The notes below the pieces were generated by a model that was given only the letters and a program-made list of their open reading frames with translations, did not search any database and was not told where the DNA came from. Shown in pieces: positions 3,611-46,047 of a stretch of DNA of 64,000 bases. Location of the stretch: sequence record OM386663.1; one strand, 5' to 3'. Positions within the stretch are counted from its first letter, which is position 1. Each line of letters opens with the position of its first letter. The stretch comes from Escherichia phage vB_EcoM_ESCO49. Made by a program: the position numbers and the translations under genes.

Positions 3611-11641
<8,031 letters not shown>

Positions 11642-11883: not shown

Positions 11884-12282
11884 TTACTGAGAAGTTAGGC
11901 TTTTGAAAATGCTTGCTTCGAAAAAACTTCCGAAGTTTGCCTCCAGCGCAAATGCTAAGTAATCAATGAACTCACCATAGTTTGCTTGGAAGTACGTATC
12001 AATATTAAGTGGGAAGTCATCAACAGTTGCCCCTTGAAATAACAGGGTAGTCATTTCTTCAAGGTTAATTTCTTCAATTCTGTCAAAACAAGCTTCAACA
12101 AGCTCTTTAAATGGAACCGTCGGAGCTTCTTTCTTACCCTTGTCAGTCAGACTTGATAGCATCTGTGCAAAGGTTGGAACAACAACTTTACCCAACTTCA
12201 TAGACATCTTAATACCATCTCTTGCTCCAAGCAGAACGATATTTACTTTCTTACCATTAATTACTCTAGATTCTGTTTTCAT
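11884..12282 (-). CDS. tail assembly chaperone (G-like)
   Basis: 132 aa; canonical X_XXY_YYZ heptamer T_TTT_TTC in frame 12 codons before stop; precedes tape measure. Confidence 0.5.
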   Translation of the reverse strand: MKTESRVINGKKVNIVLLGARDGIKMSMKLGKVVVPTFAQMLSSLTDKGKKEAPTVPFKELVEACFDRIEEINLEEMTTLLFQGATVDDFPLNIDTYFQANYGEFIDYLAFALEANFGSFFEASIFKSLTSQ

Positions 12283-12310
12283 TGTGATTCCTTAATACTT
12301 TTAAAAGAAA

Positions 12311-12343
12311 CAAAAAAGGGGAAGACCTTTTAAAGTCTCCCCC
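12311..12343 (-). terminator. rho-independent terminator
   Basis: GGGGAAGAC/GTCTCCCCC hairpin followed by U6 on minus RNA, after tube gene. Confidence 0.6.
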
Positions 12344-12355
12344 TTATAGGATTTA

Positions 12356-12802
12356 TTAAACACTTGACGCTGGAATTGTAGAAGTGTAGTCTAGCTTCTC
12401 ACAACCAAAAATCCAAGTTTTAGAGTTCTGGTCACGACCAAGTTCAATCTGTGGTAACTCCTGCAACCAAGCGTTAATACCAGTTGCCAGAACAGAGCCT
12501 GATGGGTCGTAGATTACGAAGTTAGAAGAGATTTCTTCTTCAAGTTCCATATTGTCTTGTTTAGCTTGAATTGCAGAAAGCATCTGGTTAGAGAGAGAAG
12601 TCTGCATTAACTCAATCTCAATAGTACCTGTCTTGTCTGCATTTCTTGTCAGAGCAACCTGACCACCTGCACCAACAACTGGTGTCACAAGTGGTGATGT
12701 TCTCTGTAGACGCAAGAATGAGTCTGGAGCAAAGCCTTCAATGGCAATACCATTCCAGCTACATACAACGTCTTTAGGGGAATATTGCTGATACATAGCC
12801 AT
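12356..12802 (-). CDS. putative tail tube protein
   Basis: 148 aa; between sheath-sized gene and chaperones. Confidence 0.5.
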   Translation of the reverse strand: MAMYQQYSPKDVVCSWNGIAIEGFAPDSFLRLQRTSPLVTPVVGAGGQVALTRNADKTGTIEIELMQTSLSNQMLSAIQAKQDNMELEEEISSNFVIYDPSGSVLATGINAWLQELPQIELGRDQNSKTWIFGCEKLDYTSTIPASSV

Positions 12803-12817
12803 TCCAATTTACCTCTA

Positions 12818-14170
12818 TTATTCGTAAGCCACTGTACCTTTCAAGTCAACATCCAAGATAGCCCCTGCTAAGATACCTGCGAAGGTAACGTCTTTCAGGA
12901 TACGTGCTTTCTTGTCTGCTAAAGCAACTTGAGAGGCTTTAGGAACATTAACTGTGTAAGATGACAGGAAGTTTCTGTTGACTGCTCTTTGCAGAGAGGT
13001 TTCAATGACTTGACGAATACGGGTAATACCAGTATCATCATAAGTAATCTTACCACCCTTCTGGTTAATTAGCAAGTCTCTCAGAGAAGTTTTCAGGTCT
13101 GATTCTAACCAGTCAACACCACGGATGATATCAATCCATTCCCCACCAGAAGTAATCCCTCTACGAACCACTGGAACACTACCATCAAGGTCAATAAAGT
13201 TACAGTGACGTGCATCTAAAGCAGACTTCTGAATACTTGTCAGAGGTCTCTGATTAGATGGTTGTAGAGAAGCTGCTACACCAGTTAGCTGAGCATTACC
13301 CCAAGCGATTGAACCTGCATCATATGGAGCACCATAAGCAATGTATGCCATTTCTGGGTAATCTTCTGCTGCTTCGTGATGCCACAAGCAAACTGTACGA
13401 GTGTACATATTCTTAGCAAGCTGTGCTGGAACATCATTTGCACTGGCTAATTCTGTCCCTTGCAGTGCTGCTACATCAGAGTTAGCTGTAAAGAAGATTT
13501 TCTTGCGAGCCTGAATCTCAGAAGCCATTGCTAAGACAAACTGTTGAGTTCTGTCTTCTGCTGCAATGAAATACCAGTCGGTAGAGTAAGCTTCAATAGC
13601 TGCCAGAGCAGTTGATGCTGTATCGGCAGTTGTACTTGCAATATATACAGTCTGTGCTGTGGTTGTTACTTTCACAAAGTCATTATCACCAGCTTTAGTA
13701 ATAATCATTGTGGCAGAACCACCACTACCAGTTACATTCACAGAAACCTTATCGTTGATTGTTGGGTCAGCTTCAATCTGTGTTTTAAACTGTTGCAAAA
13801 CTACATCAGCAGTATCTGAATCTTGTGCTGTATACTGGAATGGTTGAGAGATGCCACCACCAACAGCTACAGTAATTGAGTAGTCTGTACTTTCAGTAAC
13901 TTCATCATGAATTGATACAGTGTACTGCATAGTACGTCTACCAATATAAAGCTGAGTCACTTTAGGAGTCTGACTCCAAAGTTGTTTAGCAGCCTTATAT
14001 GCAGCAGTATTCTCATCGAAATCTTCAGCAACTTCAGTTAAGGAAGTGTAGCCACGAACTCTTTCTTCAAAGTTATCTGTTGAAGCTAAGAATAGTGGCA
14101 AACCAAAACCTTCTCTTGTAGTTCCTGCGGTGTTCAATGTAATATCTACATTAACAATTGGATTCCACAT
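12818..14170 (-). CDS. putative tail sheath protein
   Basis: 450 aa; sheath-tube-chaperone-TMP order typical of contractile tails. Confidence 0.5.
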   Translation of the reverse strand: MWNPIVNVDITLNTAGTTREGFGLPLFLASTDNFEERVRGYTSLTEVAEDFDENTAAYKAAKQLWSQTPKVTQLYIGRRTMQYTVSIHDEVTESTDYSITVAVGGGISQPFQYTAQDSDTADVVLQQFKTQIEADPTINDKVSVNVTGSGGSATMIITKAGDNDFVKVTTTAQTVYIASTTADTASTALAAIEAYSTDWYFIAAEDRTQQFVLAMASEIQARKKIFFTANSDVAALQGTELASANDVPAQLAKNMYTRTVCLWHHEAAEDYPEMAYIAYGAPYDAGSIAWGNAQLTGVAASLQPSNQRPLTSIQKSALDARHCNFIDLDGSVPVVRRGITSGGEWIDIIRGVDWLESDLKTSLRDLLINQKGGKITYDDTGITRIRQVIETSLQRAVNRNFLSSYTVNVPKASQVALADKKARILKDVTFAGILAGAILDVDLKGTVAYE

Positions 14171-14770
14171 TTATTTTACCCCTTTGGAGTCTACATCTAG
14201 ATGGATAGTATATTCTGGTGGCTCTTGTCCTTCTTCATAAACCAACTCACCATCAACAATGACATGTTCGATAATACTTCCACGTTCATCCTTCAGGACT
14301 GAGTTTTTTACAAGAGTTACAACAAGAGGTGCAGAATTTTCGAAATCTGTATTGAGATAAGTATAGTCATTCGGGATAGCTCCAGTGTCTAATACTGTAG
14401 CTCCTGTTTCTTCAAGGATTAAATCTCTGACTGAACTCATCTCTAATCGTTGTTTAAGCTCAAGCATAATACTGTGAGCACCTTTACCATTTACCGTAAT
14501 CAATACAGGAATCTGAAAAGCAATTCTGTAGCAAACTACATCATCCTCAACAAACTTATCAAGAACCCAACCATAAGGTGTTGCAGCATCTTGACAATAT
14601 ACGGTGATAAATGGCTGGTCAGGTTTTAAACCTTTGTCATTTGAGTTATCAGAAGGGTAAGCTCTAATTACGTTTGGTCTATTATTTTTATCACGAGCTA
14701 GTCTGTGACCAATAACATCCACTAAGGTTCTAACTAGACCTTTTTCAAGTTCTGCTGTTTCTAACTGCAT
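14171..14770 (-). CDS. hypothetical head-tail joining protein
   Basis: 199 aa; between capsid and sheath genes. Confidence 0.3.
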   Translation of the reverse strand: MQLETAELEKGLVRTLVDVIGHRLARDKNNRPNVIRAYPSDNSNDKGLKPDQPFITVYCQDAATPYGWVLDKFVEDDVVCYRIAFQIPVLITVNGKGAHSIMLELKQRLEMSSVRDLILEETGATVLDTGAIPNDYTYLNTDFENSAPLVVTLVKNSVLKDERGSIIEHVIVDGELVYEEGQEPPEYTIHLDVDSKGVK

Positions 14771-15146
14771 TCATTTTATCCCTTCTAATAATGATATATT
14801 CATAATGGGATGTATGGGCTAATTGCTGTGACCAATCCATAGTCATAAATACTTCATACTCATGACCATCAATCATAACAATGTCAGACTCGTTCCACTC
14901 TACATCATCTGAAGTTCTAAGTTTATATGTAGTATACAGGATTCTTGTATCGGTAAGCCTAATACCTTCCGGTAAAGCAATCTGTGTACCATTCTTTACA
15001 GAGCCTTTGATATATGGCTGGATATTACCTTTACAGTTAACCTCTACAATATCTTGTGAAGCTACCCAATCACCATCATCATTGTAATAACCATCTTCAG
15101 AGACTTTACGCTTTACTACAAAGCTGTGTCTGTTTAAGAGTCTCAT
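14745..15146 (-). CDS. hypothetical head-tail joining protein
   Basis: 133 aa; tightly packed with neighbours. Confidence 0.3.
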   Translation of the reverse strand: MRLLNRHSFVVKRKVSEDGYYNDDGDWVASQDIVEVNCKGNIQPYIKGSVKNGTQIALPEGIRLTDTRILYTTYKLRTSDDVEWNESDIVMIDGHEYEVFMTMDWSQQLAHTSHYEYIIIRRDKMNAVRNSRT

Positions 15147-36420: not shown

Positions 36421-36645
36421 ATGATTAAGACACCTGTACCAATTTTTGGATTTCCTTCTATAGAAGAATTTAAAGTTTATCTTGACAAAAACTTCTACAA
36501 CGAGCAGCCTGTTACTTTACTGAAGAGTGACTTATCAGAGCTTCTTGATATGATTATCAAGGCAACTCCTGAGAAGGAACCTGAACAGAAAGCTGAGAAG
36601 AAGACTAGTAAGAAATCCGATAAGAAGACTGAAAAGTCTGAGTAA
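36421..36645 (+). CDS. hypothetical protein with Lys/Glu-rich tail
   Basis: 74 aa; RBS GGAGAG. Confidence 0.35.
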   Translation: MIKTPVPIFGFPSIEEFKVYLDKNFYNEQPVTLLKSDLSELLDMIIKATPEKEPEQKAEKKTSKKSDKKTEKSE

Positions 36646-36697
36646 TAACTTAGGGGTTACTTGATAGCCCCTTTGTAGAAACTTAGAAGGTAGCGAA

Positions 36698-37108
36698 ATG
36701 AAAATTAAAGAAGTAGTCCAAAAAGCAATGCTTGACAACTCAACTAAAGATGAAATGTACAATGATATTTGTGATAAGTTGAATTGCTCAAGACATGCTG
36801 CTAAGATTCTTGTGCACTGTTTTATCTGGGAATGCTCAGAAGCTGGTGAGAATCTAAAAGAACCTGAAGTGAAAACAGTCCCTAAAGTTGGTAATGTATA
36901 CCGTCTTAAAGACTTCAAGACTGGAAAGATTGTTGCAAAAGGTGTAGTAGAGTCTGTCTATCATGATGGTAAATACTTACTTAAAATATTTGAATATGAT
37001 AGCCGCTATACACACTTGTGCGGTCTTACATTCTTAGTAACAGAAGAAGACCTCATTAAAAACAATGACAACAAGTTTGCAGTACCAGATTACCAAGTTT
37101 TACGATAA
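36698..37108 (+). CDS. hypothetical protein
   Basis: 136 aa. Confidence 0.4.
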   Translation: MKIKEVVQKAMLDNSTKDEMYNDICDKLNCSRHAAKILVHCFIWECSEAGENLKEPEVKTVPKVGNVYRLKDFKTGKIVAKGVVESVYHDGKYLLKIFEYDSRYTHLCGLTFLVTEEDLIKNNDNKFAVPDYQVLR

Positions 37109-37121
37109 TGGTGTGATAGCT

Positions 37122-37670
37122 ATGGAAAAAGATAACTTAAAAGAAGTTGAAGGTAACTACCTAGTCCTTGACTGGAGTGATATTCGAGAAGCATTATCCA
37201 AAGAAAGCCTTGACATACTGGAGCAGCTTGTCTTCTCAGTACGACATATCAGAGAAGTTAGGAATGGTAAAGAGCCACTTGAAGGAATCTTTGTAGAGAA
37301 GTCTTATCCGTTCTATGAAGACACTTTACAGAAAGTTAAAATGTACTTTAAACAGAAGAACCGTAAAGTGGTCACTATGGTATCTCTTGGTGGGCAGAGT
37401 ATGTCTATTATGGAAGATATCAATCCTAAGAGACCAAGTAAGGGTGTCTGTATAAAAATCACAGGGCATGAAGAGTATATCTCAATTGATGATTTTAGTG
37501 CACTCTGTAATGGTTCTGCTGTCTTTAATGGGTTTCACTATGATATCCGAGTGTACCCAATCAAGGGAGATGCTGTTATGATGCAGATATTTGATATCAA
37601 TGGTGGATTTACTCATTTTTATCAGACAACCAAGTCATCATTGAAGACAGTTTTAGAAAGTCTGATTTAA
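37122..37670 (+). CDS. hypothetical protein
   Basis: start placed at MEKDNLKEVEG to avoid overlap with upstream gene; start uncertain. Confidence 0.35.
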   Translation: MEKDNLKEVEGNYLVLDWSDIREALSKESLDILEQLVFSVRHIREVRNGKEPLEGIFVEKSYPFYEDTLQKVKMYFKQKNRKVVTMVSLGGQSMSIMEDINPKRPSKGVCIKITGHEEYISIDDFSALCNGSAVFNGFHYDIRVYPIKGDAVMMQIFDINGGFTHFYQTTKSSLKTVLESLI

Positions 37671-37680
37671 AATATCTTAA

Positions 37681-37708
37681 GAGCCTCCTTAATTGGGGGC
37701 TTTTTATT
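37681..37708 (+). terminator. terminator-like hairpin
   Basis: AGCCTCC/GGGGGCT stem followed by TTTTTATT, end of plus-strand block. Confidence 0.5.
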
Positions 37709-37710
37709 GA

Positions 37711-39360
37711 GTGAAAATTACGAAATTTATAATTTTTATAAAATTTTATCGGTTGTCCCAACCTCTGGGTCACCATCATACGTGAATAAAATATCTATCC
37801 TTCTTAACAACCTTCTTAATCTTACTCTCTATATAGTTATATAGTACTATATAGTATCTTAGTAACTATCTAGTGGTCTTAATAGCCTCTCTGTATAACC
37901 CTTCTAACAAGCCTTCTAACAAGCCCTCTAAACACTCTTCTAACAAGCCTTCTTAATAACCTATACAATCACCTTAACCATCCCTCTATACCCTCTTAGA
38001 AGCTCCTATACACCTCTTAATCTCTATGTTACCTATGATACCCTCTATAGGTGTTCACTAGGCACTACTAAGCCTCTATATAGACTGTTTTAACAAACTT
38101 AACAGGAATATCTTTACAGACCTTATCTCACAAGGCCTAACACGGTACTAACAAGGTATCTTATAAACCTGTTTATGCCTGTATTTTAGAAAGACTGTAT
38201 AGGTAATTATTCAGAATTTTAATTTTTTTTATAAAATAGGACTGTCAAGTCATTTTTTAGGGTCTTTGAAGGAACTCAAAAATATCTGTCTAGGATGTAT
38301 ATCTGCTTGGTAGCCCTTAACAGCCCTGTAACATCCCCTTTGCAAAATTTTAAAATATCATTAACAAACTCTTAACAACTCTCTCAAGCTCTTAACATCT
38401 CTCCAAAGGTCTTAACAAATTCTTAATAGTTTTAACAAGAGGGTAACAAATTTCTAACAAGTGCTGAAAAGGCTTTACAGAATCTTAACAGATGATTAAC
38501 AAGAGCTAACAAGTTAATTTTTAAGGGTTATTTTGTTAAGATAATTAACAAGTTCCTAACAAGTATTTAACCTTTTTAACAAGCTATTAACATGGTCACT
38601 ACTCTTTTCTTATCGTTCCCTTTCTCTCTTAGTGATTCTCTAAACATACCTTTTAAAAGCTCTCTATAGCTCCTTGTAAGCTCTTTTAAGCCTCTTCCTA
38701 GTAATTACACCCCAACTATACAGACACCTCTTTATAGAGCTTTACAGGAGCTTTTAAGGCTATGTCAAAGACTCTTACAAGGCTTTTACATGGTATTAAC
38801 AGAGATTTAACAAGGGGCTAACAAGTTGCTAACAAGCATAACTATGTAGGGATTGTTAAGAATTTGTTAAAAAGATGTTAAAGGGGCTAGCATTTACGTA
38901 ACTTTTACGTAACTTTTGAGTAACTTTATAGCCCCTATAACATACTTTTAAGACACTATCAAGCCCTTTTTAGTAGTTCACGAGATACTAGTCAGCCTAT
39001 AAGCTTATACCCTTATAAGGTTCTTTTAAGCCTCTAGAAAGCTTTATAAAGGGCTTTTAAGGGTGAGGTAATGCAATCCCTTAAGTTATATTGATAAGGC
39101 TGTTATAGGGCTTTATAGGGCGTTTTAGGGGTTGCCCTTCCCTTTCGGGTTATGGGCTTGTATTTAAGGGAAAGATTAGTTGATTTGATAAAAGGCTATA
39201 GAATAAGCTATAGAGTTATTGCTTTTTAAGGTATGGGATAGAGTCTATCGAACCAGTGGGGAGATTCTGGAAAGGTGAGGGAAAGGGTTGTATAAGGATT
39301 CGATAGACGTAAAAAAGCCCCATTTAAGGGGCTGTATAAAGGTATCTGGGGCTATTTAGC
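37711..39360. repeat. 1.65 kb ORF-free, G-poor region with at least 14 exact TAACAAG iterons plus CTATAG-rich and ACGTAACTTTT repeats; candidate origin or regulatory array
   Basis: no ORF of 60 aa or more on either strand; motif counted by eye (3 near 37905-37950, 1 near 38147, 7 in 38430-38580, 3 in 38800-38850). Confidence 0.6.
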
Positions 39361-39373
39361 CCCGCTGCGTCGA

Positions 39374-39622
39374 TTAGTTGTAACCTTGTTTGCTGTAGTA
39401 CAGAGAGATAATCAAGTCACCCCAATAATGATAGTGATGCTCATCGTTTAGTGCCTCTTTTACGGCATCTTTCCAAAAGTCATCAGTTGGGTTATAGTCT
39501 GGGATAACTTGCTTGATAACTGTCTTCACTAAGGAAAAGCATTCATCAGTTCCACCGATATCAAATTTAACATCCAGAGTATAACAGCCATAAGCGTTTA
39601 CAGTTGCGCGGATAGTTGCCAT
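39374..39622 (-). CDS. hypothetical early protein
   Basis: 82 aa from MATIRATVNA; start preceded by cassette RBS CTGGAGAATC. Confidence 0.45.
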   Translation of the reverse strand: MATIRATVNAYGCYTLDVKFDIGGTDECFSLVKTVIKQVIPDYNPTDDFWKDAVKEALNDEHHYHYWGDLIISLYYSKQGYN

Positions 39623-39716
39623 TTTTAGATTCTCCAGTTTAGGAAGTAGTTTAAGGACTTTATTTAGTGGGGAGGTCATACCCTCCCCGTTGATTGACAA
39701 TTTACAGATTTTTGAT
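39623..39716 (-). promoter_or_regulatory. early promoter/hairpin/RBS cassette, type A
   Basis: minus strand: TTGACG-N17-TAAATT, hairpin GGGGAGG-n7-CCTCCCC, RBS GGAGA, ATG. Confidence 0.55.
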
Positions 39717-40232
39717 TGTATCGTCAATGTCTTTTTCAATATCTTTTAAAGTTTTTTCTAAGTTCTTGATATTGAAAGATAAGCCCTCTCCCAATGTCTT
39801 AGAGTAAACATCAGGGCGCAAGTCATGCAGTTCGATTTCTTCCACTTCAAAGAGACTAACCAGTTCACCGCTTACATTGTAAGCCATTGAAACAGTATTT
39901 ACAGGGGCTTTGTAAAACTTGTTCAACGACTTGATAGACCGTTCATAAGCCATTTTATAACCGTTTAAAAGGTTTTTAACGTGATTGCGAACGTTTTTAC
40001 ACTCATCTAAGTAAATCCCTAAGAATAACGGCAATAACTCCGCTATAGCTTGCATAAAGTGAGAGACCACAACGGTTGCAACATTACGACGATGAACGTA
40101 ATAAGCCCCTTTTCCTGATTTAGTGATAGTTGCAAAGTGTACACCATTGCAGCGAAATTCGTAGGTATCTTTAACAGGTTTAGACATTACAGCATTTGAA
40201 CGAATGAAGTTGATAGCTTTGAACTTGTTCAT
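39702..40232 (-). CDS. hypothetical early protein
   Basis: 177 aa from MNKFKAINF; ORF-track N-terminus MTSPLNKVL is read-through of the cassette. Confidence 0.45.
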   Translation of the reverse strand: MNKFKAINFIRSNAVMSKPVKDTYEFRCNGVHFATITKSGKGAYYVHRRNVATVVVSHFMQAIAELLPLFLGIYLDECKNVRNHVKNLLNGYKMAYERSIKSLNKFYKAPVNTVSMAYNVSGELVSLFEVEEIELHDLRPDVYSKTLGEGLSFNIKNLEKTLKDIEKDIDDTIKNL

Positions 40233-40320
40233 TTTGAATCTCCAGTTTAGGACTTTATTTAGCGGGGAGGTCATCCCTCCCGTTGATTAGTACTTTACTT
40301 GTTTTGATAGCTGATTGCAA
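40233..40320 (-). promoter_or_regulatory. early promoter/hairpin/RBS cassette, type A variant
   Basis: TTGCAA-N17-TAAAGT, hairpin GGGAGGG-n5-CCTCCCC, RBS. Confidence 0.5.
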
Positions 40321-40448
40321 GCAATTTTTTAAGTTTATCTATAAAGAGTCTTTTAAGTGAATCCCTTTTAGATAAACCCCCTCGAACAAATCTACCAATG
40401 TCAAGGGGTGTTGTCAATACTTTTTGAAAGTTTTTTGTAAGTTATTGA

Positions 40449-40790
40449 TTAACTGATAAATATTTTTTCAGGCTTTACATAGCTGATACGTTGGATTTTT
40501 AGTAGGTCATTCCAGATTAATGCGGCAATATGAGAATAGCCGGATTCACGTAGAAGCTTCATTGTTTTACTTCTTGTTTCAAATCGGTTTACGTAGTACT
40601 CACTATTTAAAACCGTTTTATTGCCTTCATTGTCCACATGGATAATCTGCATTACTTGAAAGGGGCTTACATCCTCGCCTTTATTCCATTGTTCAAAGTA
40701 TTTTAGGCACTGCATAGGTGACATCTTATCACTAACCTGCGTTGACCAAGATGCGCCAGCTTTATCAGCAATTACGGTTACATAAGCCAT
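40449..40790 (-). CDS. hypothetical early protein
   Basis: 113 aa. Confidence 0.45.
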   Translation of the reverse strand: MAYVTVIADKAGASWSTQVSDKMSPMQCLKYFEQWNKGEDVSPFQVMQIIHVDNEGNKTVLNSEYYVNRFETRSKTMKLLRESGYSHIAALIWNDLLKIQRISYVKPEKIFIS

Positions 40791-40882
40791 TTTTGAATCT
40801 CCAGTTTAGGGTTTTATTTAGTGGGGAGGTCATACCCTCCCCGTTGATTGACAATTTACAGATTTTTATCCGGCTTGTCTAG
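40791..40882 (-). promoter_or_regulatory. early promoter/hairpin/RBS cassette, type A
   Basis: TAGACA-N17-TAAATT, same hairpin and RBS as 39623-39716. Confidence 0.55.
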
Positions 40883-41112
40883 TCTTTTTCAATGATAATT
40901 TCATCTTGGCCGTCAACACTGTCAAAATAGATTCCGTCGTCATCTTCTGTCTTAAAGTAGCATTTTATATCATCACTTGCGGGATAGTCTTGTCTTGCTA
41001 TCTGGCAAACTTGAATAGCATTTTCTTTACTTCCTGAAAACTCCTCAAGCCCTTTAAAGTCGCATGAATACCCATTACAGGTGGAAAGGATGAGATAAAC
41101 GGTTATAAGCAT
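40879..41112 (-). CDS. hypothetical secreted protein or lipoprotein
   Basis: 77 aa; N-terminal hydrophobic segment ending ILSTC; acidic C-terminus; preceded by a different hairpin GGCCC-n5-GGGCC. Confidence 0.4.
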   Translation of the reverse strand: MLITVYLILSTCNGYSCDFKGLEEFSGSKENAIQVCQIARQDYPASDDIKCYFKTEDDDGIYFDSVDGQDEIIIEKD

Positions 41113-41175
41113 GATTTAAGCCCCCTAAATGGCCCTGTACGGGCCTTAAGTTGGAAATTGGTGTCTTTGTATGGT

Positions 41176-41739
41176 TTAGCCTAAAAAGTCGCTCATATTG
41201 CGTTCTGTGAGGCTGTTGGTAATTTTGTCCAGTAGGTCACAATACACAGAGCTATCACCGCTATTCTGTACAATTTTTGCAATACTCAACAAATCATCGT
41301 CAATATAGCCCAAATTGCGGTTAGTTGTATCAGGTACAAAGAAAGGCGCATACATCGCACTAAAATTCGCGGAGTGGATACCAACAATCCAATTTTTATC
41401 AAAGTAACCTGTAAAGCTGGCGATGTCGCTCATATTGTCACAAGAATAATCGTCCTCAAGTTCTTCCTCTGGGATATCCATCTCAATTACAATCACTTCC
41501 TGCGTTTCCATTTGGAAAGCTGCCGTAATAAGCCCCGACTCTAAAGCATTTTGAATGCAGCGTTCACGGATGTAAGAAGCTTCTTCATCTTCCAGGCATT
41601 CCGTTTTGATAATCTTATCCATCGGGTAAACGTAAAAACAATCATCCATGTAAGAGCAGTTCCAGATACCCTCCGGCTTGTCGCCACCTTTAAGCAGGTT
41701 TACAAAGTTTTTCAGAGTAGTGCCGTGATAGCATTTCAT
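41176..41739 (-). CDS. hypothetical early protein
   Basis: 187 aa; acidic. Confidence 0.45.
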   Translation of the reverse strand: MKCYHGTTLKNFVNLLKGGDKPEGIWNCSYMDDCFYVYPMDKIIKTECLEDEEASYIRERCIQNALESGLITAAFQMETQEVIVIEMDIPEEELEDDYSCDNMSDIASFTGYFDKNWIVGIHSANFSAMYAPFFVPDTTNRNLGYIDDDLLSIAKIVQNSGDSSVYCDLLDKITNSLTERNMSDFLG

Positions 41740-41838
41740 TTTTGAATCTCCAGTTTAGGATTTAGTGGTAAAGCTCTTTATCTGGGGCTTACTATATCGA
41801 ACTATAAGCCCCTTGTAAAGTACTTTATTTGTTATTTT
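41740..41838 (-). promoter_or_regulatory. early promoter/hairpin/RBS cassette, type B
   Basis: TTTACA-N17-TATAGT with hairpin GGGGCTTA-n13-TAAGCCCC spanning spacer and -10; shared 3' part CCACTAAATCCTAAACTGGAGATTCAAAA-ATG. Confidence 0.55.
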
Positions 41839-42028
41839 TTACAACTTTTAAAACTGCAAGATAGCCTAAGCAATAGGAATCACCAAAGAGAGTCCTACCC
41901 ATGAAAGAATCTTCTTTAATATCCTTTGCAGTGACAGTTTTTTCTACGCCGTGGGAAAGGACTACATCACCAACTTTAATGTCTTTGATGTGTGTAGTTT
42001 CAATGGTTAAACCGTTAATAATAGCCAT
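41825..42028 (-). CDS. hypothetical early protein
   Basis: 67 aa. Confidence 0.4.
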   Translation of the reverse strand: MAIINGLTIETTHIKDIKVGDVVLSHGVEKTVTAKDIKEDSFMGRTLFGDSYCLGYLAVLKVVKNNK

Positions 42029-42122
42029 TTTTGAATCTCCAGTTTAGGGTTTTATTTAGTGGGGAGGTCATACCCTCCCCGTTGATGTGTAATTTAATCT
42101 ATCTAAAAACCAGTGTCAACAA
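42029..42122 (-). promoter_or_regulatory. early promoter/hairpin/RBS cassette, type A
   Basis: TTGACA-N17-TAAATT then hairpin GGGGAGG-n7-CCTCCCC then RBS. Confidence 0.6.
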
Positions 42123-42127
42123 AATTT

Positions 42128-42532
42128 TTAGAGTTCTGCATAAATTGCATCACAGACATCACGAAAATCGTGATTTGTCAAATTACGCTGTAACCAAGTG
42201 GCGAAAAAATCAGCGATTGCATAATTGGCATCATACTCGACGGATAGCCATACTTTAACAGCAAATCGAAACATCTTTAAATCAAGCTCTTTATTCATTA
42301 CCTTTGATTTGCCTAACATGTCGGACATTTCATATTGTGCGCCGTCTAGCGTGATACCTGCTGCAACGTCAGCCAATGAACTTTTTACGTTTTTAACGTC
42401 TAAAATAACGCTTTGAATCTTTCCGATAATGTTGTGCAATGTTTCATCTGGCGCTGCTGATGTCATCACATTAATCCGGTTGACGGTCAAACGTGCTTTT
42501 AAGATAGATAATTCACGGTTATTAATAGCCAT
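42128..42532 (-). CDS. hypothetical early protein
   Basis: 134 aa. Confidence 0.45.
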   Translation of the reverse strand: MAINNRELSILKARLTVNRINVMTSAAPDETLHNIIGKIQSVILDVKNVKSSLADVAAGITLDGAQYEMSDMLGKSKVMNKELDLKMFRFAVKVWLSVEYDANYAIADFFATWLQRNLTNHDFRDVCDAIYAEL

Positions 42533-42617
42533 TTTTGAATCTCCAATTTAGGATTTAGTGGTAAAGCTCTTTATCTGGGGCTTACTATATCGAACTATAA
42601 GCCCCTTGTAAAGTACT
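42533..42617 (-). promoter_or_regulatory. early promoter/hairpin/RBS cassette, type B
   Basis: near-identical to 41740-41838. Confidence 0.55.
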
Positions 42618-42890
42618 TTAAACTAAATGCAGCTTTTTGCCTTTTACCATGATGTAACTTGATGCGCTATTGCTACAAACATCCTGATAAATTCTGCGCA
42701 AACGCCCTTTATAGTGTACTTTCCAGCTGGTTGGAATCTTTTTACCGTATCCCGTAGCAGTTTTTTGGAATCCTGCAAGTTGCCAATTCAAAATATGCTG
42801 TTCAGCTTGTAAATCCTCAAAGTGCATTATGCCGTTCACATAGTGGCGTAGGGTTACGTTTAAGGTGCGACCGTTGTTAGTAGTATACAT
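42618..42890 (-). CDS. hypothetical early protein
   Basis: 90 aa from MYTTNNGRTL; ORF-track extension is cassette read-through. Confidence 0.45.
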   Translation of the reverse strand: MYTTNNGRTLNVTLRHYVNGIMHFEDLQAEQHILNWQLAGFQKTATGYGKKIPTSWKVHYKGRLRRIYQDVCSNSASSYIMVKGKKLHLV

Positions 42891-42978
42891 TTTTGAATCT
42901 CCTAGTTTAAGGGTTTTATTTAGTGGGGGGTTATCGCCCCCGTTGATGTGCAATTTAATCTATCTAAAAACCAGTGTC
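42891..42978 (-). promoter_or_regulatory. early promoter/hairpin/RBS cassette, type A variant
   Basis: TTGACA-N17-TAAATT; hairpin GGGGGCGATAACCCCCC. Confidence 0.55.
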
Positions 42979-43309
42979 AAGCATTTTGTTTTCGTTTGCT
43001 CATTTCTTGAGCAATTACAGCGTAGTAGTCTTTTAAGTCACTGGTATTTAAAGCATTTATCAGGGAATTATAATCATCAACTAACTGAAAATCATCTTTG
43101 AAGATGTCACTAATCTGGTATGTTCTCGCTTTAAATCTGAAGCTCATCTCTAGCCGCTTTATTTGCTCATCACTTAAACGCTCCAGGAAGCTCATTACAA
43201 GGCTATTATTAACCTGTTGTGTGATAGCCTTATCTGCTAAATTATAGGCTTTATATGCCTTATACAGCGCGAAAATGGCTATAATGGCGGTGACGCCGGT
43301 CATTAACAT
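42977..43309 (-). CDS. hypothetical membrane protein
   Basis: 110 aa; N-terminal TM segment; start overlaps stop of a 26-codon upstream micro-ORF. Confidence 0.45.
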   Translation of the reverse strand: MLMTGVTAIIAIFALYKAYKAYNLADKAITQQVNNSLVMSFLERLSDEQIKRLEMSFRFKARTYQISDIFKDDFQLVDDYNSLINALNTSDLKDYYAVIAQEMSKRKQNA

Positions 43310-43383
43310 GGTGTTTCCTCTTTGAAATCAATTTTATTAAGTGACTTGCTTAGATTTTCACGGACCTTATTTGATAATTTCAT

Positions 43384-43470
43384 TTTTTGAATCTCCAGTT
43401 TAGGATTTAGTGGTAAAGCTCTTTATCTGGGGCTATCTTATCAGCTTGATAACCCCGTGTAAAAAGGTCT
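43384..43470 (-). promoter_or_regulatory. early promoter/hairpin/RBS cassette, type B variant
   Basis: TTTACA-N17-TAAGAT; cassette ATG opens the 26-codon micro-ORF. Confidence 0.5.
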
Positions 43471-43472
43471 AT

Positions 43473-43985
43473 TTAGTCCTTAAAGATATTCATCACTGAA
43501 TCTTTTAATGCTTCCAATTGCTCCAGTACTTCAGATTCTGCGCCTGAATTGCTCACTTCCTCTTTTAGTCTATCCTCTAAATCAACGCCGTCACTATAAC
43601 ACCAATCAAAAGCATAACCAAGATAAAAACTTTCTAAAACCGTTTTGCCGTTTACATCTACAACTTTCGCGGCAAGGATGTATTCTGAAGCCTCTAAATC
43701 TCTTTCTAGTTCTTCCTGTAAGCTGACATAAGCCTCTTTTGATGGATTTTCCCGGCCCTGTTTTGCATAGTCACTTGAAAGCTGTTTAAGGCTATAATTT
43801 AAAGGGATTGCATATTTAAAGGCATTATGACGATAGTTGGGGTTTTTAATAGTCACGCCGCCTTGATGGTCGTCTGTAAACTCCCAATCAGCAAGATTAT
43901 GGCTTGACTCGTAGCAGTTTACCGCTTCATAGATGATTGAAAATTTTTCTTTTACAACTTCAAAAGTAGCGTCTACAGTTTTCAT
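43473..43985 (-). CDS. hypothetical early protein
   Basis: 170 aa; acidic C-terminal half. Confidence 0.45.
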   Translation of the reverse strand: MKTVDATFEVVKEKFSIIYEAVNCYESSHNLADWEFTDDHQGGVTIKNPNYRHNAFKYAIPLNYSLKQLSSDYAKQGRENPSKEAYVSLQEELERDLEASEYILAAKVVDVNGKTVLESFYLGYAFDWCYSDGVDLEDRLKEEVSNSGAESEVLEQLEALKDSVMNIFKD

Positions 43986-44071
43986 TTTAGAATCTCCAGT
44001 TTAGGGGTTTAGTGATAAAGCTCTTTATCTGGGGCTTACTATATCGAACTATAAGCCCCTTGTAAAGTACT
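43986..44071 (-). promoter_or_regulatory. early promoter/hairpin/RBS cassette, type B
   Basis: same module as 41740-41838. Confidence 0.55.
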
Positions 44072-44455
44072 TTATTTGTTAATTTTGAAAATTGTCACAT
44101 AGCCATCGCTCCCGATAATTTGAGATACTCCAGCTTTTTCTACTGAATAGCCCATATTCTCAAGATGATAAACAGCATCATCATAACCATATGCGCCGCC
44201 CTGATAACGTCTCTTATCACATCTTATCAGGTTTTTACCACGTCCTGCAAGTGCATTTAGTACGGCTTTTTCACTTGAAAGCGTACCATCTAACATTGTT
44301 GCCGTGTAGTGGTTGATTCTGTTCCCGTTAATATCATACTTAAAATTGAACGAGTGAACAACAACTATTTTATCGTTAAATTTTTCATCAAGCGCCTTCT
44401 CTAATACATTACGGAAATTTTCTTTATTGATGAATTTAGGTGCACGATATGCCAT
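44072..44455 (-). CDS. hypothetical early protein
   Basis: 127 aa. Confidence 0.45.
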   Translation of the reverse strand: MAYRAPKFINKENFRNVLEKALDEKFNDKIVVVHSFNFKYDINGNRINHYTATMLDGTLSSEKAVLNALAGRGKNLIRCDKRRYQGGAYGYDDAVYHLENMGYSVEKAGVSQIIGSDGYVTIFKINK

Positions 44456-44543
44456 TTTTGAATCTCCTAGTTTAAGGTTGTTGATAAAGCTCTTTATCTG
44501 GGGCTTAAGATATCAACTTTTAAGCCCCTTGTAAAGTACTTTA
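44456..44543 (-). promoter_or_regulatory. early promoter/hairpin/RBS cassette, type B variant
   Basis: TTTACA-N17-TATCTT; hairpin GGGGCTTAA-n11-TTAAGCCCC. Confidence 0.5.
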
Positions 44544-44750
44544 TTAGATATCGTAGTAATAAACTGCTGTCTGTCTTATGTGCTTTCTTGTGTTTCTTGT
44601 AAGGTAGCAATTAGAGTTTATAGCCGTTTCTACATAATTGCAATAGTCAGACTCTGAAATTCTGGACCATGCGCCGCAAATTTGCATGTAAAAACGTTTT
44701 ACATTTGTGTTAACGTTAGTTGTGACCATCAATTCACGACCGTATAGCAT
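44544..44750 (-). CDS. hypothetical early protein
   Basis: 68 aa; Cys-containing. Confidence 0.4.
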   Translation of the reverse strand: MLYGRELMVTTNVNTNVKRFYMQICGAWSRISESDYCNYVETAINSNCYLTRNTRKHIRQTAVYYYDI

Positions 44751-44812
44751 TTTTAGATTCTCCTAGTTTAAGGCTATCGGGCTTATCGCCCTGTCTGATG
44801 CAAATACTAGAT
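44751..44812 (-). promoter_or_regulatory. partial cassette (RBS half plus short hairpin GGGC-n5-GCCC)
   Basis: CATTTTTAGATTCTCCTAGTTTAAGG shared with other cassettes. Confidence 0.4.
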
Positions 44813-44994
44813 AACCCCGTTCAAATAGTCAATAAAATTTTTAAAAATATTTTTGGCAAAAATGTAATGAAACGGGTGCGCGCGAATACCACAAAACAGA
44901 ACACAAATCAAGAATTATTTTTCAATCCGCTACAAATTTTTCTGTTGACTTTTCTTTTCGGATGTGGTAGCCTTGTGAGAAATGGCGACATCCC

Positions 44995-45195
44995 CACCTA
45001 CACCCACCTACCTGCACAATTCTAAAATGATTTTTCTTGCCCGACCTGATTTTTCTCTGCACGTTTTGAAAATGAAAAAGCTCTTTGGAGATTACCTGCA
45101 CAGTTTGAAAATGAATTTTCTCTTTGGAGTTCAAGATTTTCTCTACAGATTTCTCTATAGAAATATACCTGCACAATTCTGAAATGAAAAAGCCC
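44995..45195. repeat. three degenerate direct repeats (ACCTGCACA[AG]TT[CT]T[AG]AAATGA...CTCTTTGGAG) in an intergenic region
   Basis: copies near 45004, 45093 and 45166 read by eye. Confidence 0.5.
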
Positions 45196-45261
45196 TCCTT
45201 ACCTGAAAAAATCTACCAGATAAGAAAGGCTTAGTCTATTGTGAATATTATACAGAGTTTC

Positions 45262-46047
45262 TTAGTTCTTTGCGTCTAAGAAGGTTACTTCCGGTGAAGA
45301 GAAGACCGTCTCAATATCCTCATCAGTTCTTGCATAGATGTATGTATCTGCATCACTGCCAAATGTTACAGCTATCCTGTGATTGCTCTTCGACAGGTGG
45401 GTAACTAGAGCGTTACTTAGAGACATCTTTTCAACCGGAGGGTTACTTTGATGTATCTTACCTTTTCTTCGTCTGAAGAGGGTAACTGTATTGTCCGTGA
45501 ACACAACTACACCTGCAAAGTATTCTGGTTCACAGTAGTTTTTCCAACCTGAGTGTAACTCGTTGTACATCTCTGTCTCGTAGACATACAGATAAACATC
45601 TACGCTCTTCATAACCTGATTGATGATAACTGTGACAGCTTGAGGGTCCAGCCCACCGATACCTGCACCAATCATAGGTAGGCCAACCTTCTTCAACTGG
45701 TTAACTTCACAGTATCTGTTAAGTTGCTTCAAAGATGACTCTAAAGCACTGTATCGGGCGTCTTTACCAGTCTTAAGCTGAGTGTAAAGGTTAGCTATAC
45801 GACCTTGTTTTAAACGTGCTACAGAGAAGTTACCCAGTAAATTTTCACAGGGTTTGTGGCCTATACCACCTGCATAGATGTAAACTTCTGTATCGGTCTC
45901 ATATGCTTTTGGGTAAAGTTTAGAAATCTTGTCAGCGATACCTGCACCCATTAAATTCATACAGTTGCAACCGTGACCAATGATGTCAAACTTACCTTTA
46001 TCAAAGGCGTCAAAGATATCACCATTGATGATTTTTACAATACCCAT
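45262..46047 (-). CDS. macro-domain (ADP-ribose binding/processing) protein with C-terminal extension of unknown function
   Basis: 261 aa; N-terminal GDIF...DIIGHGCNCMNLMGAGIA and LPMIGAGIGG Gly-rich motifs. Confidence 0.6.
   Translation of the reverse strand: MGIVKIINGDIFDAFDKGKFDIIGHGCNCMNLMGAGIADKISKLYPKAYETDTEVYIYAGGIGHKPCENLLGNFSVARLKQGRIANLYTQLKTGKDARYSALESSLKQLNRYCEVNQLKKVGLPMIGAGIGGLDPQAVTVIINQVMKSVDVYLYVYETEMYNELHSGWKNYCEPEYFAGVVVFTDNTVTLFRRRKGKIHQSNPPVEKMSLSNALVTHLSKSNHRIAVTFGSDADTYIYARTDEDIETVFSSPEVTFLDAKN

Follow-up and report, generated by a model that had tools for sequence, protein, structure and literature searches.

The minus strand of Escherichia phage vB_EcoM_ESCO49 (sequence record OM386663.1) carries, within the 64,000-nucleotide stretch analyzed here (the window), an array of twelve small genes (39,374-44,850) in which short cassettes recur between the genes and are better conserved than the genes themselves, and this raises the question of what these cassettes are and what they do for the array. 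When the array region (6.2 kb) was compared with sequenced phages, 258 phage records were matched, all of them from Felix O1-like myoviruses, with Salmonella phage PK6 as the best match (89%), and we therefore assigned the source to a Felixounavirus genome (subfamily Ounavirinae). The array lies between two terminators, and a motif scan found the cassette motifs confined to it within the window; in the complete 87.1-kb genome of the relative Bas63 they were likewise confined to the same single locus. We propose, with a probability of roughly 0.78, that the array is an early hyperplastic locus of a Felix O1-like myophage built from expression cassettes of the promoter-early stem-loop (PeSL) type.

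Eleven cassettes of ~85-100 bp were identified, namely, five of type B (before B, D, E/F, I, and K), five of type A (before H, J, M, N, and O), and one leader variant (before A). Type B corresponded to repeat-finder family D1, consisting of 91-nt repeats with 73-100% identity, and type A corresponded to family D2. The initial annotation had described eleven conserved cassettes of promoter, hairpin, and ribosome-binding site (RBS), and this was borne out by sequence reading, by the repeat finder, and by an alignment of the 110 nt upstream of the start codons; the first promoter starts at 44,832, just beyond the position at which the array had been ended (44812). The twelve minus-strand genes encode 67-187 aa (family labels A68, B127, D170, F110, H90, I134, J67, K187, L77, M113, N176, and O82), and the array contains an additional remnant open reading frame (ORF) of 26 aa (E). 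The cassettes and genes are as follows.

44751..44850, minus strand: cassette 1, leader variant; TTGACT-N17-TAGTAT (44832-44804), short hairpin GGGC-GATAA-GCCC, tail CCTTAAACTAGGAGAATCTAAAA, ATG of A68
44750-44544, minus strand: gene A68, behind cassette 1
44456..44543, minus strand: cassette 2, type B; loop allele AAAAGTTGATATCTT, -10 TATCTT; drives B127
44455-44072, minus strand: gene B127, behind cassette 2
43986..44071, minus strand: cassette 3, type B, chimeric; TTTACA-N17-TATAGT; drives D170
43985-43473, minus strand: gene D170, behind cassette 3
43384..43472, minus strand: cassette 4, type B variant; arms GGGGTTATC/GATAGCCCC, -10 TAAGAT; drives the E remnant and then F110 by coupling
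43383-43303, minus strand: E remnant, 26 aa, behind cassette 4
43309-42977, minus strand: gene F110, reached through the E remnant via the overlap ATGTTAATG
42891..42976, minus strand: cassette 5, type A; TTGACA-N17-TAAATT (42980-42952), hairpin GGGGG-CGATAA-CCCCC; drives H90
42890-42618, minus strand: gene H90, behind cassette 5
42533..42617, minus strand: cassette 6, type B, 99% identical to cassette 8; drives I134
42532-42128, minus strand: gene I134, behind cassette 6
42029..42127, minus strand: cassette 7, type A; -35 at 42119-42114, -10 at 42096-42091, GGGGAGG (42080-42074)/CCTCCCC (42067-42061), centroid hairpin of -16.3 kcal/mol; drives J67
42028-41825, minus strand: gene J67, behind cassette 7
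41740..41824, minus strand: cassette 8, type B reference copy; -35 at 41819-41814, -10 at 41796-41791; drives K187
41739-41176, minus strand: gene K187, behind cassette 8
41113..41175, minus strand: K-L spacer without a cassette; hairpin GGCCC-GTACA-GGGCC at 41145-41131
41112-40879, minus strand: gene L77, without a cassette of its own
40791..40878, minus strand: cassette 9, type A; TAGACA-N17-TAAATT (40881-40853); drives M113
40790-40449, minus strand: gene M113, behind cassette 9
40233..40448, minus strand: cassette 10; proximal part type A, TTGCAA-N17-TAAAGT, hairpin GGGAGG-GATGA-CCTCCC; drives N176
40232-39702, minus strand: gene N176, behind cassette 10
39623..39727, minus strand: cassette 11, type A; -35 TTGACG (39727-39722) inside the end of gene N; drives O82
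39622-39374, minus strand: gene O82, behind cassette 11

The spacer before N is unusually long (216 nt), and its distal part holds an extra, strong promoter-like site, TTGACA-N17-TAGATT with a TG element (40417-40389), enclosed by CCCCT...AGGGGG, so that here again a promoter-like site lies inside a hairpin. At the position of this spacer, Michonne (a Citrobacter phage) has a 46-aa gene (T), and nataliec annotates a 38-aa ORF.

A sigma70-like promoter, consisting of a -35 element, a 17-nt spacer, and a -10 element, was present in 11 of 11 cassettes, and the N17 geometry was kept across heads unrelated in sequence (TTGACA, TAGACA, TTGCAA, TTGACG, and TTGACT). Type A had been described as TTGACA-N17-TAAATT followed by GGGGAGG-n7-CCTCCCC; this design was confirmed, but the loop is 6 nt long (GGGGAGG-GTATGA-CCTCCCC), and the exact TTGACA occurs only in the cassettes before H and J, the heads before M, N, and O being TAGACA, TTGCAA, and TTGACG with a -10 of TAAATT or TAAAGT. 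For type B, we aligned 44 distinct copies from Felixounavirus, Mooglevirus, and Kolesnikvirus. Among them, no variation was seen in the -35 TTTACA or in the first two bases (TA) of the -10, and the last T was conserved in at least 90%, while the loop positions other than these key bases were variable. Conserved -10 bases inside an otherwise variable loop are the pattern expected of a functional -10 element embedded in a hairpin loop. At the upstream end of each cassette, the stop codon of the preceding gene sits in an AT-rich stretch before the -35 (type B, ..AAATAAAGTAC-TTTACA, with the stop 6-8 nt ahead; type A, ..AAAAATTTTG-TTGACA). At the downstream end, GGAG is followed after 8-9 nt by ATG in all eleven cassettes, and the standardized 5′ untranslated region (5′UTR) with its Shine-Dalgarno (SD) sequence ends in ..CCTAAACTGGAGATTCAAAA-ATG, a tail of ~30 nt being common to both cassette types.

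Could these elements be something other than promoters? Structured RNA defines mRNA ends or stability at the RNase III-type sites between the cistrons of the T7 early region and in the ompA leader, and by analogy with the T7 sites the array might be read as one polycistronic early transcript from the leader promoter, with the hairpins as RNase III-type processing or 3′-stabilizing sites and the -35 and -10 hexamers as fortuitous matches in AT-rich DNA. Type B, a ~20-bp interrupted helix with internal loops, does resemble RNase III substrates, just one terminator upstream and one downstream bracket the array, and promoter-like hexamer pairs in the region were not above shuffles (23 versus 19.5 ± 4.5). 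The promoter case thus rests on position, spacing, and conservation. These speak for internal promoters, since the -35 and the TA..T of the -10 stay fixed in three genera though other loop positions vary freely and since the 17-nt spacing is kept in unrelated heads; in addition, PeSLs, which are of homologous design, are very strong promoters in vivo (PMC2839356), and RNA processing and internal promoters are not mutually exclusive. Unlike the T7 sites and the ompA leader, the elements of the array also hold promoters, and they gave no sequence or Rfam match (Rfam 15 covariance-model scan of window positions 36500-45500, no match at E ≤ 1). We regard a single transcript as quite improbable.

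The hairpins were then considered in the same copies. All 38 distinct type-A variants folded. For type B, the initial annotation had placed a hairpin over the spacer and the -10, and the overlap was found as described; the structure, however, is larger, being a ~60-nt bipartite hairpin whose outer stem takes in the upstream stop codon. In cassette 8, the inner stem is formed by GGGGCTTA (41812-41805) and TAAGCCCC (41791-41784), the outer stems extend to the upstream stop codon, and the minimum free energy is -25.4 kcal/mol versus -13.7 ± 2.5 for shuffles (z = -4.64). Over the 44 copies, 97% of the sequence-by-pair cells of the type-B stems form standard pairs, and sliding the partner columns drops this pairing to 31-61%; double changes from GC to UA were seen at pairs 22-47 and 9-60, and the covariation score was reached by 0 of 500 shuffles. 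The sense strand folded better than the antisense strand in both types (type A, -11.2 versus -9.6 kcal/mol; type B, -21.7 versus -20.4 kcal/mol). Together with the frequent G·U pairs, this favors a structure that acts in RNA over a DNA palindrome, although the difference is modest.

The palindrome could nevertheless be a DNA operator, at which a dimeric phage regulator would shut off or activate all promoters of the array, the RNA hairpin being incidental. The type-B palindrome occupies a classical repressor position, reaching from 1 nt after the -35 to the start site, and the genus-wide symmetric changes from GGGG/CCCC to GGTG/CACC in Erwinia phages fit a coevolution of half-sites with a protein. 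Arbiol et al. speculated about a DNA-binding protein that targets GGGG..CCCC (PMC2839356), and the Bas63 annotation includes a putative transcriptional regulator elsewhere in the genome. On the other hand, a single genome contains several arm sequences (GGGGCTTA/TAAGCCCC, GGGGTTATC/GATAGCCCC, and GGGGAGG/CCTCCCC), loop length and G-run length are variable, and the outer stems extend into the upstream stop codon; moreover, a T·G wobble at one pair in 19 of 44 type-B copies and in most type-A copies keeps RNA pairing and breaks DNA symmetry, and the better folding of the sense strand points the same way. An operator is therefore an unlikely account of the inverted repeats.

The anatomy of the cassettes matches that of a known element. 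PeSLs are defined as elements that combine AT-rich sequence containing an upstream stop codon with a sigma70-like promoter, with a stem-loop of the form GGGG...CCCC, which may lie between -35 and -10, overlap the -10, or follow it, and with an SD sequence and ATG; they sit between small ORFans in hyperplastic regions, and crossovers fall inside the element (PMC2839356; PMC4122927). The PeSL resemblance suggested by the initial annotation held for every defining feature that sequence can address. As in the PeSLs of RB49 and phi1 (PMC2839356), we found the upstream stop within AT-rich sequence, a sigma70 promoter close to consensus with its boxes 17 nt apart, a GGGG..CCCC stem-loop with G·T pairs in the same permitted placements, and SD plus ATG at the 3′ end, all located between small ORFans, with element-internal crossovers separating close relatives. 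The differences are that the host genome here is a ~88-kb Ounavirinae myovirus rather than a T4-like phage, that the cassettes have no detectable sequence homology to any T4-like record, that they form one contiguous array whereas the RB49/phi1 PeSLs are scattered over several hyperplastic regions, that they fall into two discrete homogenized families sharing a 30-nt 5′UTR/RBS tail, that the type-B hairpin is long, bipartite, and inclusive of the stop codon, and that they are described here from sequence. The elements of T4/PST and KVP40/nt-1, comprising PeSLs and their middle-promoter counterparts, PmSLs (PMC4122927), share with the array the placement of promoter/stem-loop motifs beside indels and replacements between close relatives, the separation of consecutive ORFs by an element each, and degraded or half elements, comparable to an empty cassette in Michonne (see below) and to cassette 9, in which the 3′ end of an N-like gene survives as a relic (AAAAATCTGTAA). 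There, however, the motifs are looser and place the stem-loop immediately ahead of the promoter, whereas here the stem encloses or follows the promoter and the copies are 73-100% identical; a middle-promoter (Mot-box) version as in the PmSLs was not seen here. PeSLs had been described only from T4-like phages, whereas the window and all 288 records with type B belong to Ounavirinae of 82-94 kb. These comparisons support the assignment of the cassettes to the PeSL type by anatomy, occurrence in T4-like phages being an attribute of host lineage, not of anatomy.

If the assignment is correct, each cassette would be a self-contained unit for the host RNA polymerase, composed of a sigma70 promoter, a G-run/C-run stem-loop, and a standard 5′UTR/SD. 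The predicted type-A hairpin lies ~3-5 nt after the predicted start (~7 nt past TAAATT), and thus every type-A mRNA is expected to begin with a 5′ stem-loop. A 5′-terminal stem-loop is the classic arrangement of a 5′ stabilizer in Escherichia coli mRNA decay, and like ompA-type stabilizers the type-A hairpin is predicted only a few nucleotides from +1; it may protect the mRNA against 5′-end-dependent decay. The 5′ arm of type B starts 1 nt after the -35 and its 3′ arm ends at the predicted start, so that this hairpin would exist only on read-through RNA, where it could serve as an attenuator, as a terminator, or as a 3′-end-protecting or processing hairpin that insulates neighboring units. The embedded promoter would then restart transcription for the next gene and yield transcripts that lack the hairpin; the leader of such a type-B transcript is predicted to be unstructured (z = 0.08). 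By analogy with the PeSL stem-loops, for one of which a terminator role has been shown in RB49 by reporter assay (PMC2839356), the most economical reading would be that the hairpin limits or marks upstream transcripts while the promoter restarts transcription.

Do the cassettes also explain how the array varies? We compared 17 arrays, comprising those of 15 Felixounavirus genomes, Citrobacter phage Michonne (Mooglevirus), and Erwinia phage vEam_W_25 (Kolesnikvirus), via ORF calling and protein clustering. The families followed the pan-order A B C D E/F G H I J Q K/L R S M T N U O, and whole gene-plus-cassette units were present or absent across the genomes. C, G, Q, and U were absent from the window, B, C, J, K, and L from Felix O1, D through J from AN17P8, A, C, and D from radambza, and A and N from VpaE1_ev78, and only a minority of genomes had G, Q, and U. 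Michonne has 19 genes, with gene C duplicated in tandem and one "empty" cassette (~7350-7521) in which a complete tail and ATG (…CCTAAACTGGAGAATCTAAAATG) are fused directly to the next type-B head (CTTTACATGGGG…) beside the C duplication; we read both as footprints of unequal recombination between cassettes. The converse pattern, unchanged gene content and order with diverged spacers, was looked for in the relatives and was clearly not found; they showed variable gene content and conserved, chimeric cassettes.

In a junction test, seven independent indel junctions were placed in three-way alignments with both parental cassettes of a relative. In all seven, the sequence matched the upstream parent at first and the downstream parent from a point inside the cassette onward, and all seven joined cassettes of the same type; most switches lay within the invariant core of type B, CCCCAGATAAAGAGCTTTA, or, in type A, in the segment from the hairpin to ACTAAATAAAG. 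Cassette 3 of the window is one such chimera, its head being the B-to-C cassette of relatives and its tail their C-to-D cassette, with gene C absent. Exchange between paralogous cassettes was also apparent. The loop "alleles" of type B are spread mosaically over orthologous positions, and a window-specific change from A to T, converting the -10 TAAAGT to TATAGT, is common to the cassettes before D, I, and K and absent from 14 other genomes, which is concerted evolution. The tail of cassette 11 is duplicated, with CCTTAAACTA at 39656-39647 and CTTCCTAAACTGGAGAATC at 39646-39628. Its second half has exactly the sequence with which the leader cassette ends in relatives, 5 kb away, and this indicates that the first cassette of the array has exchanged sequence with the last; the duplicated O-cassette tail is also present in dune, radambza, AN17P8, and VpaE1_ev78.

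The closest relative of the window differed gene by gene, and deep alleles reassort among genomes (K, ~90% versus ~64%; O, ~92% versus ~70%). The cassettes were more conserved than the genes, since the best type-B match was at least 95% identical in 157 of 288 records and the whole region was 80-90% identical in 197 of 258 records. These results showed, at the level of sequence, that whole gene units are deleted, inserted, and duplicated, that cassettes are homogenized, and that alleles are reassorted by cassette recombination. The cassettes are 85-95 bp direct repeats that lie 0.3-0.6 kb apart and are thus substrates for homologous recombination, which reassorts gene alleles between co-infecting relatives. 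Of the shuffling of early genes mentioned in the initial annotation, the gain, loss, and duplication of units and the exchange of alleles were found, but translocation is rare and order is conserved. We also observed a third cassette family in vEam_W_25 (11900-14850), TTGCAA/TTTACA-A-GGGGTTA..TATAACCCC-GTCGAAAC.., which has the promoter-inside-hairpin geometry with a different sequence (-35, GGGG arm, -10, CCCC arm) and sits beside type-B copies with GGTG/CACC stems in a gene order unlike that of Felixounavirus.

That cassettes recombine does not mean that they are kept for recombination, and they could be conserved for their expression signals only, with recombination as a side effect of no adaptive role and gene-content differences as neutral decay. 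Every junction is consistent with plain homologous recombination between direct repeats, the array has no associated recombinase or integrase, the mostly collinear order is as expected from deletions of a long ancestral array like the 19-gene array of Michonne, and decay products exist (the E remnant; truncated H/J in SWJM-02). Signals alone, however, need no near-identity over 85-95 bp that includes loop and spacer bases, and units are also gained, duplicated, and repositioned (family R; C twice in Michonne; G, Q, and U in a minority) and divergent alleles are exchanged. This explanation differs from the one we favor only on whether the plasticity is selected, a matter beyond sequence to decide, and we hold it to be possible, if somewhat doubtful.

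At the other extreme, the hairpin might be the target of an active, structure-specific exchange, through PeSL-type mini-circles or a hairpin-directed nuclease or recombinase, which would make the array an integron-like capture platform through which early host-takeover or anti-defense genes would circulate among co-infecting Ounavirinae. Integrons are tandem arrays of small genes, mostly of unknown function, that are separated by attC hairpins and in which units are gained and lost; their cassettes lack promoters and move by means of an integrase that acts on attC in folded, single-stranded form. The array likewise has small genes of unknown function between hairpin-forming repeats where units come and go, but each unit has its own promoter, no integrase is present, and the junctions look like those of ordinary homologous recombination. 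Alternatively, the hairpin could be a switch that senses read-through, for the stem spans -35+1 to +1 and would form only on read-through RNA, and the output of a unit would then be set by upstream transcription. Either form of this idea strikes us as speculative and unlikely.

Several points weigh against our proposal of an early locus built from PeSL-type cassettes. We infer promoter use and the role of the hairpins from sequence; the number of promoter-like sites, as given above, does not exceed that in shuffles. Neither type-A nor type-B hairpins are followed by a T-run, and a simple terminator scan found none at the cassettes. The compensatory changes in type B amount to few independent events (the Erwinia lineage and the E-type cassette) among related copies, and a dimeric DNA-binding protein would also account for the symmetric stem changes. 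Gene order is largely collinear and repositioning is rare (family R is first in GEP101 and after L in Michonne; the order in the Erwinia phage differs), and some changes were not mediated by cassettes, namely, the in-frame deletion of E in the window, the loss of E with its cassette in GEP101, and the truncation of H/J in SWJM-02. Finally, reverse transcription-PCR (RT-PCR) of Felix O1 places the maximum of ORFs 17, 19, and 23 at 25 min, not at 5 min (PMC3185647).

How widely are the cassettes distributed? Type B was found in 288 phage records at 1,477 places (~5 per genome), including 29 Erwinia phages, and type A in 249 phage records; type B is recognizable in Felixounavirus, Mooglevirus, and Kolesnikvirus. 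All records that matched type A or B were genomes of 82-94 kb (Ounavirinae), and no T4-like phage record was matched by either type (blastn, E ≤ 0.01). A pattern scan of IMG/VR returned at least 120 loci, and among the matches listed at least 26 had the full type-B architecture, all on contigs of 84-94 kb; the remaining single matches among those listed, which lack the full architecture, were dismissed as chance. This distribution bears on whether the repeats are miniature mobile elements, similar to miniature inverted-repeat transposable elements or repetitive extragenic palindromic units, that invaded intergenic spaces. The type-B unit is an imperfect ~60-nt palindrome present in ~5 copies per genome in the 288 records, as such an element might be. 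Nevertheless, orientation and register between stop codon and ATG are always the same, the copies are confined to one genome locus, target-site duplications are absent, and the repeats are found only in genomes of Ounavirinae size (82-94 kb). With orientation, register, and locus fixed, we rejected a mobile element, an origin that we consider extremely improbable.

Parts of these repeats have been recorded before. In the genome paper on Felix O1, "direct repeats" of 57 bp and 39 bp are listed and secondary promoters are said to be unknown (PMC3185647), and record annotations in relatives include "DR" features (wV8), a "terminator" (KhF1), and two "promoters" (AYO145A). These promoters and repeats go unmentioned in the VpaE1, wV8, and comparative Felixounavirus papers, and in the openly searchable literature (subscription-only literature lay outside the search) we found no paper linking PeSLs to Felix O1-like phages. 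PeSL-like cassettes in Felix O1-like phages, spanning genera, thus appear to be unreported, while the PeSL concept itself dates from 2010.

What do the cassettes drive? The description of the twelve genes as small (67-187 aa) and without recognizable function was upheld, as a Pfam search with all 12 cargo proteins gave no match and each protein fell into its own PHROG, all of these PHROGs being of unknown function. The initial annotation put the proteins forward as candidates for host takeover or anti-defense, roles that they may have. An N terminus (MTSPLNKVL) shared by two ORFs had been taken for a mistranslation, and this was correct: it is an artifact of ORF calling that arises from the type-A hairpin loop (ORFs 39374..39739 and 39702..40274). 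Early expression has partial outside support from Felix O1, in which RT-PCR found array ORFs 16, 20, 21, and 22 maximal at 5 min and ORFs 17, 19, and 23 maximal at 25 min (PMC3185647); early timing of all units is a presumption.

Two genes depart from the rule of one cassette for each gene. Gene E encodes 98 aa in relatives and 26 aa here, having lost 216 nt through an in-frame internal deletion that kept the E-F overlap ATGTTAATG, and through this overlap F110 is translationally coupled to the E remnant. L77 has no cassette and always accompanies K across the arrays compared. The hairpin in the K-L spacer has two alleles, GGCCC-GTACA-GGGCC here and AGCCCC-TTGT-AGGGGCT followed by TTTT in other phages, which track the two deep alleles of K, and the second looks like an intrinsic terminator directly ahead of the SD sequence of L.

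The array is bounded by the following features, and the two terminators were the only ones with a hairpin and a T-run (39333-39310 and 45230-45183).

45262-46047, minus strand: macro-domain gene (Pfam E = 8.7e-8), preceding the upstream terminator
45183..45230, minus strand: rho-independent terminator upstream of the array, equivalent of Felix O1 t13 (sequence match to the listed t13, PMC3185647); ends the preceding operon of the macro-domain gene
39310..39333, minus strand: rho-independent terminator closing the array, stem 39333-39316 plus T-run, equivalent of Felix O1 t23 (PMC3185647)

Between the upstream terminator and the leader promoter (45009-45194, minus strand), there are four direct copies of ~TCATTTTCARAAYTGTGCAGGTA, spaced by 39-84 bp, which look like iterons or operators; annotations of relatives give small ORFs on either strand at the equivalent position. 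Directly downstream of the array, between convergent terminators, lie ~1.6-2 kb without annotated genes (~37300-39300), rich in CCTTATAA/CCCTATAA-like motifs, and the GenBank records of several relatives begin inside this stretch (pEP20 at ~window 38309; dune at ~37945). Terminal repeats of ~600 bp have been reported for the genus (UAB_Phi87). The record starts and the reported repeats hint that a physical genome end may adjoin the array.

PeSLs have been proposed as a motor of early-gene turnover in T4-like phages, and the array is a more regular version in an unrelated myovirus subfamily. Its occurrence in Felixounavirus, Mooglevirus, and Kolesnikvirus (at least 288 sequenced phages) suggests a convergent or general design rather than a T4 peculiarity, perhaps a general solution for virulent phages that use the host RNA polymerase. 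With one locus, two cassette types, many natural gain and loss variants, and tractable phages (Felix O1; Bas63 from the BASEL collection), the array is a good system in which to study the role of a promoter-embedded hairpin and the selection on cassette recombination. The cassettes also flag ~20 families of early proteins of unknown function as what may be an accessory pool of host-interaction genes, and they could serve as they stand for the insertion and expression of genes when these therapeutic phages are engineered.

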